Assembly: GCA_000146045.2 (NCBI GenBank)
Contig: BK006937.2
Span: 160,001-224,000 of the forward strand
Direction: 5' to 3'
Source: TPA_inf: Saccharomyces
Taxonomy: Eukaryota
DNA: 64,000 nucleotides
Shown here: positions 7,370 to 12,424 of the stretch, in pieces
Numbering within the stretch: position 1 is the stretch's first letter
Layout: every line of letters begins with the position of its first letter
Program-made: the position numbers and the translations under genes
Notes under the pieces: model-generated
Databases searched by the model: none
What the model saw: only the letters and a program-made list of their open reading frames with translations
Told to the model about the DNA's origin: nothing

Positions 7370-7999
7370 TCACATTATAGAACATTTATTATTATTTTCG
7401 GCATCAAGCCCCAGAGTTCCTTCGACACGTTCCATTTGTTTCAAAAGGAGCATAAAAGTTTCTTCAACATTATAATCTAACTCGGCACTGCATTCTATAA
7501 ATGCTGCCTGGTTCCTCTTATCTTGACTGCCAATTGTCGAAGCTAGTTTCTCTCCTTCAGCTTTCGTGACACACCTTTTTACACCTTTTGTACTCCTTCC
7601 CAAATCAGCTTTGGTACCCACAAGTATTACCGGGAGGTTATCCTTACCCAGCTGATCTACCAGCTTGTCCCAGAGAATGGGAATAAGATCAAAGCTAGCA
7701 CGATTTATTATACTATAGCACAGTATTATGCCTCGTACGCCCGTCAACGATTTAATGTTTAATAGAGAAACTTCATCTTGGCCTGCAGTATCTAGAATTT
7801 CCAGAGTACAGTCATGACTTTTATAAGGAATTATCCTGGTAAATTCATTTTCAATAGTGGGATAATAGGATTCAACGAACCGCGATTCTACGAAGCGAAC
7901 CGTTAATGTGGTTTTGCCGACATTTCTAGCTCCTATAAGAGCAATCTTTCTCTGAAAGTTATGTGTGGAGTTCGAAGAAGACATAGTGGCGTATTCCAT
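7370..7999 (-). CDS. RHB1: Rheb-family small GTPase, 209 aa, with a C-terminal CAAX box (CSIM)
   Basis: G1 motif GARNVGKTT, DTAGQ, and NKAD/GTKAD, ending in CSIM. Matches YCR027C. Confidence 0.92.
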   Translation of the reverse strand: MEYATMSSSNSTHNFQRKIALIGARNVGKTTLTVRFVESRFVESYYPTIENEFTRIIPYKSHDCTLEILDTAGQDEVSLLNIKSLTGVRGIILCYSIINRASFDLIPILWDKLVDQLGKDNLPVILVGTKADLGRSTKGVKRCVTKAEGEKLASTIGSQDKRNQAAFIECSAELDYNVEETFMLLLKQMERVEGTLGLDAENNNKCSIM

Positions 8000-8300
8000 T
8001 ATGTCACAGGTTATATCTTTTCTCGCCGTGCCCCAATAAAACTGTTTCGGTAAAGAGACAATTCGAACCAGCCCAAAAGAATGAATATGAAAATATCAAT
8101 ATGCGTCAATGAAAATGGAGGCAAGTTCAATAATTTCACTGGAAATATAACTAGTAATAATTCGTGTAACTGCTGTAGAAATTGTTAGATATTAAACCTG
8201 GCAGAAGCGTCTTGTTAATACTTATAGAGAAACCACCAGTAGCGTTCTTCTGTATCTGAAGATAGTGAAAAATCAAAAAAATAAATCTGTATTCAAAAAA

Positions 8301-8372
8301 AGGTCCTACCCGGATTCGAACCGGGGTTGTCCGGATCAAAACCGAAAGTGATAACCACTACACTATAGGACC
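8301..8372 (-). tRNA. tQ(UUG)C: tRNA-Gln with anticodon UUG, 72 nt, no intron
   Basis: Reverse complement is GGTCCTATAGTGTAGTGGTTATCACTTTCGGTTTTGATCCGGACAACCCCGGTTCGAATCCGGGTAGGACC(T). It has a 7-bp acceptor stem, an A-box (TAGTGTAGTGG), a B-box (GGTTCGAATCC) and an anticodon loop TTTTGAT giving UUG. Confidence 0.93.
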
Positions 8373-8388
8373 AGGACTTCTTGTAATA

Positions 8389-9068
8389 TTTTGTATCTCA
8401 AAATGAGGTATGTCAGTATGACAATACGTCATCCTAAACGTTCATAAAACACATATGAAACAACCTTATAACAAAACGAACAACATGAGATAAAACCCGG
8501 CCTTCCCTAGCTGAACTACCCAAAAGTATAAATGCCTGAACAATTAGTTTAGATCCGAGATTCCGCGCTTCCACCACTTAGTATGATTCATATTTTATAT
8601 GAGAAATGGGTGAATGTTGAGATAATTGTTGGGATTCCATTGTTGATAAAGGCTATAATATTAGGTATACAGAATATACTAGAAGTTCTCCTCGAGGATT
8701 TAGGAATCCATAAAAGGGAATCTGCAATTCTACACAATTCTATAAATATTATTATCATCGTTTTATATGTTAATATTCATTGATCCTATTACATTATCAA
8801 TCCTTGCGTTTCAGCTTCCACTAATTTAGATGACTATTTCTCATCATTTGCGTCATCTTCTAACACCGTATATGATAATATACTAGTAACGTAAATACTA
8901 GTTAGTAGATGATAGTTGATTTTTATTCCAACATTATATAATATATAAGATAAGTAACATTCCGTGAATTAATCTGATAAACTGTTTTGACAACTGGTTA
9001 CTTCCCTAAGACTGTTTATATTAGGATTGTCAAGACACTCCGGTATTACTCGAGCCCGTAATACAACA
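8389..9068 (+). mobile_element. Solo Ty3 LTR (sigma element) of about 340 bp. It is interrupted at 8600-8933 by a Ty1/Ty2 delta insertion, leaving sigma parts at 8389-8599 and 8934-9068.
   Basis: It starts T(G/t)TTGTATCTCAAAATGAG...GTATGACAATACGTCA and ends ...CTCGAGCCCGTAATACAACA, which is the sigma sequence from memory. The sigma edge lies 17 bp from the mature 5' end of tRNA-Gln, the expected Ty3 Pol III-targeting distance. Confidence 0.85.
8600..8933 (-). mobile_element. Solo Ty1/Ty2 LTR (delta), 334 bp, inserted inside the sigma element
   Basis: Reverse complement begins TGTTGGAATAAAAATCAACTATCATCTACTAACTAGTATTTACG and ends GGAATCCCAACAATTATCTCAACATTCACCCATTTCTCA. It is flanked by a 5-bp target-site duplication, TTATA at 8595-8599 and again at 8934-8938. 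The intact sigma sequence is restored when the delta plus one TSD copy are removed. Confidence 0.88.
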
Positions 9069-9206
9069 TAATATCTACATTCTAGATACCGACATATCAA
9101 TATAAAAATACTGAATATTGAGACATCTTTTAGATTACGTTTTGGTTGCCGCAAACCAAAAATGCAATTTAAATGGGTGAATAATTTGAATGGTTAGAAA
9201 TCTATT
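9069..9206. mobile_element. LTR debris. There is a probable truncated delta end fragment (AAATGGGTGAAT core) between the sigma and the next delta.
   Basis: The 12-mer AAATGGGTGAAT and flanking similarity to the delta terminus (TGAGAAATGGGTGAATGTTGAG) occur in reverse orientation around 9170-9200. The remainder is unassigned. Confidence 0.3.
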
Positions 9207-9544
9207 TGTTGGAATAAAAATCCACTATCGTCTATCAACTAATAGTTATATTATCAATATATTATCATATACGGTGTTAAGATGATGACATAAGTTATGA
9301 GAAGCTGTCATCGATGTTAGAGGAAGCTGAAACGCAAGGATTGATAATGTAATAGGATCAATGAATATAAACATATAAAACGGAATGAGGAATAATCGTA
9401 ATATTAGTATGTAGAAATATAGATTCCATTTTGAGGATTCCTATATCCTCGAGGAGAACTTCTAGTATATTCTGTATACCTAATATTATAGCCTTTATCA
9501 ACAATGGAATCCCAACAATTATCTAATTACCCACACATTTCTCA
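9207..9544 (+). mobile_element. Solo delta LTR (Ty1/Ty2 type), 338 bp
   Basis: Starts TGTTGGAATAAAAATCCACTATCGTCTATCAACTAATAG. It contains GAAGCTGAAACGCAAGGATTGATAATGTAATAGGATCAATGAATAT and CCTCGAGGAGAACTTCTAGTATATTCTGTATACCTAATATTATAGCC. It ends CACATTTCTCA. Confidence 0.82.
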
Positions 9545-9572
9545 CTATTCTCGGTAAAGGTTATAATATTAG

Positions 9573-9888
9573 TGTTGGAATAAAACTCTAAAATACCATC
9601 CATTCAGAAGTATTCATGCTACTAGCATTTTATCACATGAGGTGTAAGAAGATGACATAAAGATTGAGATACAGTCATCAAACCTAATGGAAGCGAAATG
9701 CAGGGATTGATAATGTAATAAGATAATGAAACATAAGAAACAGAAGGTAGGAGTATTATTATGTAGAAATACCGATTCCATTTTAAGGATTCCTATGTCC
9801 TCGAGTAGAACGTCTAGTATATACGAAATATTATACCCTTTAAAAAACAGTGGACCCAACGATAATCACAACATTCACCGATTTCTCA
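9573..9888 (+). mobile_element. Diverged (older) solo delta-like LTR, 316 bp. It lies in direct tandem with the previous delta, separated by 28 bp.
   Basis: Starts TGTTGGAATAAAACTC and ends CGATTTCTCA. It has recognisable but diverged delta core blocks (GATTGATAATGTAATAAGATAATGAAACATA and TCCTCGAGTAGAACGTCTAGTATATAC). Confidence 0.7.
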
Positions 9889-10885
9889 CCTGAACAGATC
9901 ACGATCATCCTTCAGAACATCTTGCTGTAGCCATATTAAATTCCTTTGTCTCTGGACTCTTTCTCGCGCGACTGATCTCCCAATGAAGAACTGCGTCAGG
10001 TCATCTCGTCCTCAATTTCTAACCAAAATTGGATGATTTTAGTTCTCACTGACGCTGCTTGAACGTTAACACCGAAAGAGCATGCAATAATCACAGCACG
10101 GTAAACCAACTTGTGTCATATTTAAGAGAAATATTAAAACGCTAAGAAGATAGCTCCCATAATAGAAGTACAAGTTATATTTATCGTTGTCCAACTGCAG
10201 AAGTTAAATAAAGGTAAATAAATCGAGCTAAGAGAAAAAAAAAGTATAGGCAAAATTCCGACCGGAGCTAGCTTTATCTTGCTCCTCCACCTAAGTCACC
10301 TGCTCAGGTCACTCAAGTTCACAATCTTCTGAGAGGATAGATAAAGGAAAAATTGGAACAGATCTTTTCATGGCCTGGCAATTGTCTGTGGATTGGTAAA
10401 GCTCTGTCAGTGAAAAAAAAAGTTCTCGCTCCTTCTTGGTCTCTTCTATTGCCTGAGATTCTAATGCTTTCCTTACATTGTTTCATAAAATAACCAATTT
10501 TTCGTGTCACAATAATCTTGAAATTTGAAGTTTCTAAAATGCATCAGACATGGTGTCGTAATTAGTTGACTTACTTTAACTTCTACCAAGAAGTAGAAAA
10601 TAGCAGAGTGCGTGAACGCATAGCAGAGAACAAAATACTTACTAAACCTTTTCGAATAAGTTAGCAAGAAGCTTTTAAAAACATAGACTTAGAAATTGTC
10701 CTGCACTTGGCAAGGAAGAAAAGAAAGATTAGTTAAACAGAAATCGAAAAATGCATGATGAAAAACTAAGTAGACCTCTTTAGAAGTGTCTTAGCGGCTA
10801 TTGTTCATGATACTTTTGAAAAGAGCCCTGAGATTTTCCATTACCATCAACAGGACCAATGAATAGCTAAAAGAATCGAATGTAT

Positions 10886-12424
10886 CTATCGGAAAGGATT
10901 TGAAATTTCGGCCATTTCCTCATTATGAAGTTCAACTTCCATACTCTCGTCGTCGCCATCATTTTCATTATCCTGGTTGTCGTCATCGTCATCTTCTCCG
11001 GGCATGTCATTAGCATCTATATAAGGAACCTGTTTCTTAGACAAATTCTCTTTTATCTGTAGTGAGCGTATGACGACCGAGACAATTCCGCTTGATATTG
11101 CCGTAGCCAAGAGGGCGTAGCAACCTCTCTCAAACTTGGGCACCATATCTGAAGCAAAGAATAATATAGACCACCATGCGTTAACGGCCCCTGAAAACAT
11201 ATTCATGGAAGCAAGAACGATAGCACGTTCTTGAAGATCTGCATGACAAATAATGTTTGCCCACGAAAAAAAAACCGCTTGTCCAGCGTATGCTACGCCT
11301 CCAAGATACTGTGCAGAAAAGACGACTTTTGGATTTAGTGGGTCTGCACGTATTAGTACCGCAACAATAACCATTACCAATGATATGAAAACAGAAACAT
11401 GCCAATGCCTAGCTCTTGGGATCTTACTCATATATACAGCAGAACAAAGCGTAGAAACTATACCTACGGCAAATATCCCCGAAGGATAATTATTTCTTTG
11501 CGCCAACGTATATTTTTGGTTTTGTAACCATAATGCAAATGTAGAATTAGATGCGAAACCCAAGTTCTCACCTCCCAGAACCCAAACAAGAGAGAACATC
11601 CACCAGTGCCACCTTTTTAAGACTCTAGGAATAGTCGACCAGTCTAACCGGGTGCTTTCGTCCCTAGCGGGGAGCCTTCTCCTAGCATAATGTAGCTCTT
11701 GTTCATTAAAAATGTATCTCGTCATAGAAAATTTGCTAACAGCACTTGTTTGATCAGGAAGGCCGGGGAAGAAAATAAACCCATAAATTGCAATGGGTAA
11801 TGTGATACAAAAATCAATAATGAATAACCATCTCCAACCCGCCAAGCCATTCCGCCCATTCAAATGAGTAAAGATACTTGTTTGCATAAATCCACTGAAC
11901 ATAGATCCCACCAAACCGCTACCTGTAAAAATAGCACTTCTAATGGGCAATTCGTCTTCTTTATACCACGAACCCAAAACAAAATGTGTTCCTGAAAATG
12001 TGCAACTCTCAAATAAGGCTTGAAAGAATCTAATTGCGCAAATATGTTTGAACGATGTAACTTTGTACATTCCCAAGGTCAATAAACCCCAAGCAAACGT
12101 ACAAAAACTTAGCCATATCCTGGGCGGAACACACAATAACATTAAATTATTGGGGACCATACCTACAATGTAACCAATCATGAAAACTGTGTTAGACACG
12201 GTCAAATCGTTTCCGACCATCTTAAGATCTTCCTTCATACCGGATATATATGCATTGGTGAAACCGACACGGTCGACATAATTAATCCAGTATTGCAAGC
12301 AAACAAATGATAGCACAAACAAGTCTATTTTAAACAGAAGTAATCTCTTTTTAATGGCACGCTTGGAAGAAACAGATTCTCTCTCAACCTCATGTTGAGT
12401 GATAGATTTCGATTCCTTCATCAT
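10886..12424 (-). CDS. FEN2: Plasma-membrane H+-pantothenate symporter of the MFS Dal5/allantoate permease family, 512 aa
   Basis: 512-aa ORF with 12 predicted TM segments, MFS signatures and an acidic C-terminal tail (DDDDDNQDNENDGDD). Matches YCR028C. Confidence 0.92.
   Translation of the reverse strand: MMKESKSITQHEVERESVSSKRAIKKRLLLFKIDLFVLSFVCLQYWINYVDRVGFTNAYISGMKEDLKMVGNDLTVSNTVFMIGYIVGMVPNNLMLLCVPPRIWLSFCTFAWGLLTLGMYKVTSFKHICAIRFFQALFESCTFSGTHFVLGSWYKEDELPIRSAIFTGSGLVGSMFSGFMQTSIFTHLNGRNGLAGWRWLFIIDFCITLPIAIYGFIFFPGLPDQTSAVSKFSMTRYIFNEQELHYARRRLPARDESTRLDWSTIPRVLKRWHWWMFSLVWVLGGENLGFASNSTFALWLQNQKYTLAQRNNYPSGIFAVGIVSTLCSAVYMSKIPRARHWHVSVFISLVMVIVAVLIRADPLNPKVVFSAQYLGGVAYAGQAVFFSWANIICHADLQERAIVLASMNMFSGAVNAWWSILFFASDMVPKFERGCYALLATAISSGIVSVVIRSLQIKENLSKKQVPYIDANDMPGEDDDDDNQDNENDGDDESMEVELHNEEMAEISNPFR

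Follow-up and report, generated by a model that had tools for sequence, protein, structure and literature searches.

Nested Ty1 and Ty3 long terminal repeats beside tRNA-Gln(UUG) at a transposition hotspot on Saccharomyces cerevisiae chromosome III

Long terminal repeats (LTRs) of different Ty families can come to lie one inside the other, raising the question of whether such an arrangement records successive integrations and, if so, in which order they occurred. The question is posed by a delta that interrupts a sigma beside a tRNA-Gln(UUG) gene on Saccharomyces cerevisiae chromosome III. The window, meaning the whole stretch of DNA analysed here, comprises 64,000 nucleotides (assembly GCA_000146045.2, contig BK006937.2, positions 160,001 to 224,000 of the forward strand), and coordinates are counted from its first letter. 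The locus is almost certainly a nested retrotransposon insertion at the tRNA-gene Ty hotspot FRAHS, which is fragile site FS2.

The neighbourhood was identified by Pfam domains and gene order, and exact protein matches put it on S. cerevisiae chromosome III. It encodes a mitochondrial-type class II tRNA synthetase, a phosphodiesterase, a Ras-family GTPase of 209 aa, an MFS transporter of 512 aa, a muniscin and a BEACH protein, which we take to be SLM5, NPP1, RHB1, FEN2, SYP1 and BPH1, respectively. The flanking proteins RHB1, FEN2, NPP1 and SLM5 served to retrieve the locus from other S. cerevisiae assemblies, and 31 distinct other chromosome III assemblies were classified by junction probes. 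FEN2 itself (10886-12424) varies among the retrieved loci: its product has 512 aa in the window and 386 aa, from the same start, in L001, L003, L005-L008, L037, L042-L044 and L046. These shorter calls reflect either a premature stop or frameshift polymorphism or assembly indel errors.

Anatomy of the nested repeats

The tRNA gene, the two repeats and their target-site duplications (TSDs) are arranged along the window as follows.

8301-8372, minus strand: tRNA-Gln(UUG) gene, called by ARAGORN, with 0-1 mismatches in every assembly whose locus spans the position
8384-8388: left copy of the sigma TAATA TSD, read from the sequence; single TAATA in 16 sigma-less assemblies
8389-8599, plus strand: left part of sigma, a Ty3 solo LTR, contiguous with the right part in 13 assemblies
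8595-8599: left copy of the Ty1 TTATA TSD, part of the original sigma sequence
8600-8933, minus (Crick) strand: delta1, a 334-bp solo Ty1 LTR nested in sigma, recognized by its ends and length
8934-8938: right copy of the Ty1 TTATA TSD; the same junction flanks a full-length element in L031
8939-9068, plus strand: right part of sigma, read from the sequence and ending CGTAATACAACA
9069-9073: right copy of the sigma TAATA TSD, read from the sequence

The inner repeat carries the diagnostic features of a Ty1/Ty2 delta. Its plus strand reads TGAGAAATGGG ... TTATTCCAACA, and TGAGAA...CCAACA is the reverse complement of the delta sequence TGTTGG...TCTCA. It has TG...CA termini, a perfect 5-bp TSD and a length of 334 bp, the length given for delta LTRs (PMC5911963). 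The two outer parts, 8389-8599 and 8939-9068, join without gap or overlap into a sigma of 341 bp that reads ...GATTCATATTTTATATAATATATAAGATAAG... across the junction. This restored repeat shows the length of a sigma (~340 bp), the TGTTGTAT...ATACAACA terminal inverted repeat, a perfect TAATA TSD and a tRNA-proximal position. Its left end at 8389, TTTTGTATCTCA, differs from the canonical TGTTGTATCTCA by one substitution; the same substitution makes the first terminal octamer TTTTGTAT instead of TGTTGTAT, and the right end, ATACAACA, is exact. From these diagnostic ends, the length and the position, together with the general sequence of sigma elements, we take the outer repeat to be a Ty3 LTR.

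Sigma starts 16 nt upstream of the 5' end of tRNA-Gln(UUG), and the point of Ty1 insertion lies 228 bp from that end, in an AT-rich part of sigma. Given the local base composition, two 5-mers would match by chance with a probability of ~0.0013-0.0017. A second sigma was sought as a reference within the 64-kb window and none was found; the uninterrupted orthologous sigma alleles of other strains served as the reference for the two halves. A sequence-only reading of this DNA had proposed a delta nested in sigma with an intact TTATA TSD, and its coordinates, duplication and restored sequence proved correct to the base.

Allele series and order of insertions

The 31 assemblies fall into a series of allelic states. 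Sigma is absent from 16, which carry a single TAATA (for example CTTGTAATATCTACATTC) and read ...GGACTTCTTGTAATATCTACATTC..., the flanks of the window around one TAATA; in another 13 sigma is uninterrupted and TTATA occurs once. Eleven of these 13 also lack delta2, the neighbouring Ty1 LTR, and L041 and L045 combine the uninterrupted sigma with a full-length Ty1 at the delta2 site. In one further assembly, L031, both sites are occupied, that of delta1 by a full-length Ty and that of delta2 by a Ty; in the last, L004, a Ty begins at the same left junction, and the right side is rearranged. The solo delta1 allele was found in none of the 31 classified assemblies, and a full-length Ty3 at the sigma site in none of the strains sampled.

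The restored junction predicted from the window was turned into a probe of 40 bases, formed by 8580-8599 and 8939-8958. It matched with 0 mismatches in 11 of the 13 assemblies with uninterrupted sigma and with one edit in the other 2. The flanks of L041 and L045 are 100% identical to the window (8000-8600 and 8934-9544) over 601 and 611 bp. The proposal that removal of 8600-8933 and one TTATA would restore sigma is thus borne out by alignment of the 341-bp product to uninterrupted alleles, and the suggestion that delta may be missing from other S. cerevisiae strains, with an empty site in sigma, holds in 13 of the 31. Likewise, the integration is a genuine one of the Ty1/Ty2 type, as had been claimed: TTATA is single in the 13 assemblies and is present at both junctions of the full-length Ty in L031. 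Delta1 is left over from a genuine integration into a sigma that was already in place, and sigma itself goes back to a genuine integration at the tRNA gene.

Among the retrieved loci, L016/L028 (GCA_949124545.1) shows a different interruption of sigma, by ~250 bp at the equivalent of window ~8461. The inserted sequence is G/T-rich with long poly-G runs, and it was dismissed as a probable assembly or sequencing artefact.

Two further deltas lie to the right of sigma.

9207-9544, plus (Watson) strand: delta2, a solo Ty1 LTR with a perfect CTATT TSD at 9202-9206 and 9545-9549
9573-9888, plus strand: delta3, an old degenerate delta, ~75% identical to delta1

Delta2 is inverted relative to delta1, to which it is 85.5% identical, and a spacer of 273 bp separates the two. 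Its site is empty in 27 assemblies. In L031, L041 and L045 the delta2 LTR is followed by a full-length Ty1 that starts with the primer-binding site TGGTAGCGCC. An LTR matching delta2 also abuts the right flank in L018, with Ty genes beside it, and in L020, with no gene calls beyond FEN2; the delta2 site thus has a full-length Ty1 in L045/L018 and probably in L020. Delta3 is the oldest Ty layer of the hotspot. The flanking alignment 9545-10885 spans it in every assembly whose locus covers it; in L017 delta3 is split by an extra delta.

That extra delta is found in the sigma-less L017/L030 (GCA_001634645.1), inside delta3 at the equivalent of window ~9671-9678. It is 93% identical to delta2, in the opposite orientation, and represents another independent insertion at the hotspot. 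Between delta3 and FEN2, ~170 bp equivalent to window ~10430-10600 are absent from L009 (GCA_000976815.3).

Empty sites within the species establish which state came first, and the series of alleles seen in the 31 assemblies therefore supports the order tRNA, sigma, Ty1, solo LTR. The chronology of tRNA, sigma and delta put forward in the sequence-only reading agrees with the 16 sigma-less and 13 uninterrupted-sigma alleles. The order can be extended: delta3 came first, followed by sigma, then the Watson Ty1 at the delta2 site and, most likely as the latest arrival, the Crick Ty1 in sigma. The precedence of delta2 over delta1 is the most likely reading if recombination between haplotypes is assumed not to have occurred, and is based on the Ty1 at the delta2 site that accompanies an uninterrupted sigma in L041 and L045.

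Full-length Ty1 and the origin of the solo LTR

The allele of L031 (GCA_947370585.1) preserves a complete element at the delta1 site. Its order is sigma-left, TTATA, LTR, a 5.3-kb interior, LTR, TTATA and sigma-right, and with both LTRs included the element spans 5,924 bp. One LTR adjoins a polypurine tract, which reads TACCACCC in this orientation, and the other a tRNA-iMet primer-binding site. Its open reading frames have Pfam matches to TYA (4.9e-145), rve (1.6e-08) and RVT_2 (3.4e-27). The delta1 of the window is 100% identical to the LTR proximal to sigma-left, and the other LTR differs from it at 7 positions clustered near the U5 end (window 8608-8619). Such a pattern is more readily explained by gene conversion or a recombinant parent than by point mutation. 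The solo LTR of the window has the form of the left LTR, the outcome that a crossover at any point of the other 314 bp would give. Within the L031 element the 5' LTR reads TGAGAAATTTGTGGGTAATTAG, like delta2 (TGAGAAATGTGTGGGTAATTAG), and the 3' LTR reads TGAGAAATGGGTGAATGTTGAG. At both sites in L031 the 5' LTR, beside its primer-binding site, faces the spacer.

The family of the parent element follows from the published hotspot. In its passages on FRAHS, the study of Hoang et al. (2010; PMC2996329) reports a full-length Crick Ty1, YCRCTy1-4, in genuine S288C. A supplementary table of the same paper gives YCRCTy1-4 an identity of 97-99% to YCLWTy1-1 and YCRWTy1-2, and Ty2 elements one of ~76-77% to the same two (PMC2996329). 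Ty1 elements are in general ~96% identical to one another and ~74% identical to Ty2. Because the S288C element at this site is YCRCTy1-4, the parent of delta1 is taken to be a Ty1 and not a Ty2, on the basis of the naming and the identities in that paper. Within FS2, delta1 is the counterpart of the LTRs of the left element, YCRCTy1-4 (PMC2996329; PMC3291544), and delta2 represents the right element, YCRWTy1-5 (PMC3291544). Delta2 is probably the feature annotated as YCRWdelta11. A literature search for SGD names of the LTRs at this locus tied only YCRWdelta11 to it, and yielded none for delta1 or sigma.

The history that these alleles point to comprises three steps. In the first, a Ty3 inserted where Pol III starts to transcribe tRNA-Gln(UUG), with duplication of TAATA, and would later have been reduced to the solo sigma. 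A former full-length Ty3 and an LTR-LTR crossover presumably lie behind this solo state. In the second, a Ty1, presumably attracted to sequences upstream of this tRNA gene, entered the AT-rich part of sigma in Crick orientation, with duplication of TTATA. In the third, homologous recombination between the direct Ty1 LTRs would have deleted the 5.3-kb interior and one LTR, leaving the TSD intact; this step is placed in the lineage or clone that gave the window sequence. The reduction to a solo LTR by recombination, already suggested by the sequence-only reading, fits the identity of delta1 with one LTR of L031, although it is still inferred. Delta2 would have passed through the same history 273 bp away.

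The targeting presumed to operate at tRNA-Gln(UUG) is taken from the known behaviour of the two families (PMC5911963). Ty3 inserts at 1-4 bp from the site where Pol III begins transcription, through the binding of its integrase to TFIIIB, and Ty1 integrates in nucleosomal DNA within ~1 kb upstream of Pol III genes, its integrase contacting Pol III subunits such as Rpc40 (PMC5911963). The position of sigma, 16 nt from the mature tRNA 5' end, agrees with insertion of Ty3 1-4 bp from a start ~10 bp upstream, and the 228-bp distance of the Ty1 insertion point fits the ~1-kb upstream range of Ty1 (PMC5911963).

Three other explanations have to be weighed. It is possible, though unlikely, that the solo state is an artefact of reference production, the Ty1 interior having been lost in a lambda, cosmid or yeast clone or through a collapsed assembly; the nested integration would still be real. 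The FRAHS passages of Hoang et al. (2010) state that in BY4716-derived S288C two full-length Ty1 elements 'almost entirely replace' the reference sequence of the hotspot (PMC2996329), and Chan and Kolodner (2012), where they describe FRAHS, confirm the full-length pair (PMC3291544). The count of solo delta1 alleles, 0 of 31, points the same way. However, the passage of Rosen et al. (2013) on YJM789 describes a natural inverted pair of solo deltas in that strain, allelic to FS2 and with the same spacing (PMC3778018), and Hoang et al. (2010) blame non-standard source strains of the original chromosome III sequence and not an artefact (PMC2996329). Moreover, both solo LTRs of the window retain perfect TSDs and complete ends, as clean homologous crossovers, a common event in vivo, would leave them. 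Loss of the Ty1 interior could have taken place outside S288C, in a non-standard source strain or in the course of cloning. Because solo delta1 is found in 0 of the 31 assemblies, its natural existence rests on the window and on the statement about YJM789 (PMC3778018).

It is very improbable that delta1 arrived as a solo LTR, whether by aberrant integration of an LTR-only cDNA or by gene conversion from a sigma copy that already carried a delta. Nothing specific speaks for such an arrival, and the window by itself does not separate it from the reduction of a full-length element. In L031, however, a full-length Ty1 sits at this very position, oriented alike and flanked by the same TTATA duplication, as it does in genuine S288C according to the FRAHS passages of PMC2996329, and one of the L031 LTRs is the exact counterpart of delta1. 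Loss of the interior is a far more parsimonious account than a separate integration that hit the same nucleotide in the same orientation.

There is next to no chance that the sigma halves are two separate truncated fragments brought beside delta by a rearrangement, with a TTATA repeat that is coincidental in AT-rich DNA: the region is indeed AT-rich and a 5-mer match expected at roughly 0.0015 is non-negligible genome-wide, but the parts join without gap or overlap, the contiguous sequence occupies the same position in 13 assemblies, in two assemblies >600 bp of either flank match the window at 100% identity, and the contiguous 341-bp sigma of other assemblies refutes this origin.

The locus as fragile site FS2

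FRAHS, the far right arm transposition hotspot, is given as SGD chromosome III 167399-170909 in the relevant passage of Hoang et al. (2010; PMC2996329), an interval that corresponds to window 7399-10909. These authors resequenced FRAHS from BY4716-derived S288C and report YCRCTy1-4 and YCRWTy1-5, both absent from the reference (PMC2996329). In the passages devoted to it, FS2 consists of two head-to-head Ty1 elements ~280 bp apart, a distance given as 283 bp in PMC3291544 (PMC3291544; PMC3778018), and YCRWdelta11 is the only feature that the reference is said to annotate there (PMC3291544). The window agrees with this description in position, lying at ~169 kb between RHB1 and FEN2 and beside tRNA-Gln, and in its inverted head-to-head Ty1-derived pair, with a spacer of 273 bp in the window versus ~280/283 bp as published. 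It differs in having solo deltas, whereas genuine S288C, W303-type and other strains have two full-length Ty1 elements. In this respect it resembles YJM789, whose inverted pair is described, in the passage on that strain, as 'delta-only' with the same spacing (PMC3778018).

As individual repeats, both LTRs belong to familiar classes. Delta1 resembles the solo Ty1/Ty2 deltas upstream of tRNA genes in its 334 bp, TG...CA ends, 5-bp TSD and location <1 kb upstream of a Pol III gene, as well as in its derivation from a full-length element by LTR-LTR recombination. It differs from them in nothing essential; the target here is an older Ty3 LTR, a situation common at tRNA-linked Ty clusters. Solo LTRs number 279 in S288C (PMC5911963). 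Sigma resembles other solo Ty3 sigmas at tRNA start sites in its ~340 bp, ...ATACAACA ends, 5-bp TSD and distance of 16 nt from the tRNA, and differs from them in the substitution in its left octamer and in being polymorphic, absent from 16 of the 31 assemblies. The locus and the nested arrangement are already known and not new; the passages of the FRAHS/FS2 literature consulted here make no mention of a Crick element inside a sigma.

The right side of the L004 allele (GCA_030035895.1) has a structure of its own. There the Ty that begins at the delta1 left junction ends against AATATGAATC. Read on the other strand, this sequence is the left part of another sigma copy, which shows 96.7% identity and has the canonical TGTTGTATCTCA end and a different flank. 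This second sigma lies ~6,560-6,770 bp from the RHB1 start (window orientation) and is equivalent to window 8385-8594 inverted. The junction between the Ty and the second sigma (GATTCATATT|) lies 5 bp away from the position that corresponds to the TTATA site, and beyond the second sigma the contig continues into non-syntenic DNA encoding a PPR protein. L004 was rejected as a second full-length allele at the delta1 site, its right flank being a different, inverted sigma and non-syntenic DNA, and it was counted for its left junction only. The right side reflects either a Ty-mediated rearrangement at FS2 or a misassembly.

Since the Ty of L004 abuts a different sigma 5 bp from the TTATA site, two independent Ty1 integrations could be read from this allele and the window. 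The AT-rich, TATA-like stretch of sigma ATATTTTATATAATATATAAG (ATATTTTATATAAT) would then be a recurrent micro-target for Ty1 integrase, an idea that we consider quite unlikely. If true and general, it would give old Ty3 LTRs a role in positioning Ty1 insertions to the nucleotide and in promoting nested inverted arrays that turn into fragile sites.

Nested Ty LTRs with intact TSDs beside tRNA genes are textbook features of the yeast genome, and as an isolated observation the present pair matters little. The inverted Ty1 pair behind these remnants is FS2, which serves as a model for how chromosomes break under replication stress and at which Ty-mediated deletions, translocations and loss of heterozygosity concentrate. 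The reference under-represents this locus, the ~12 kb of inverted Ty1 in standard laboratory strains being represented there by solo deltas.
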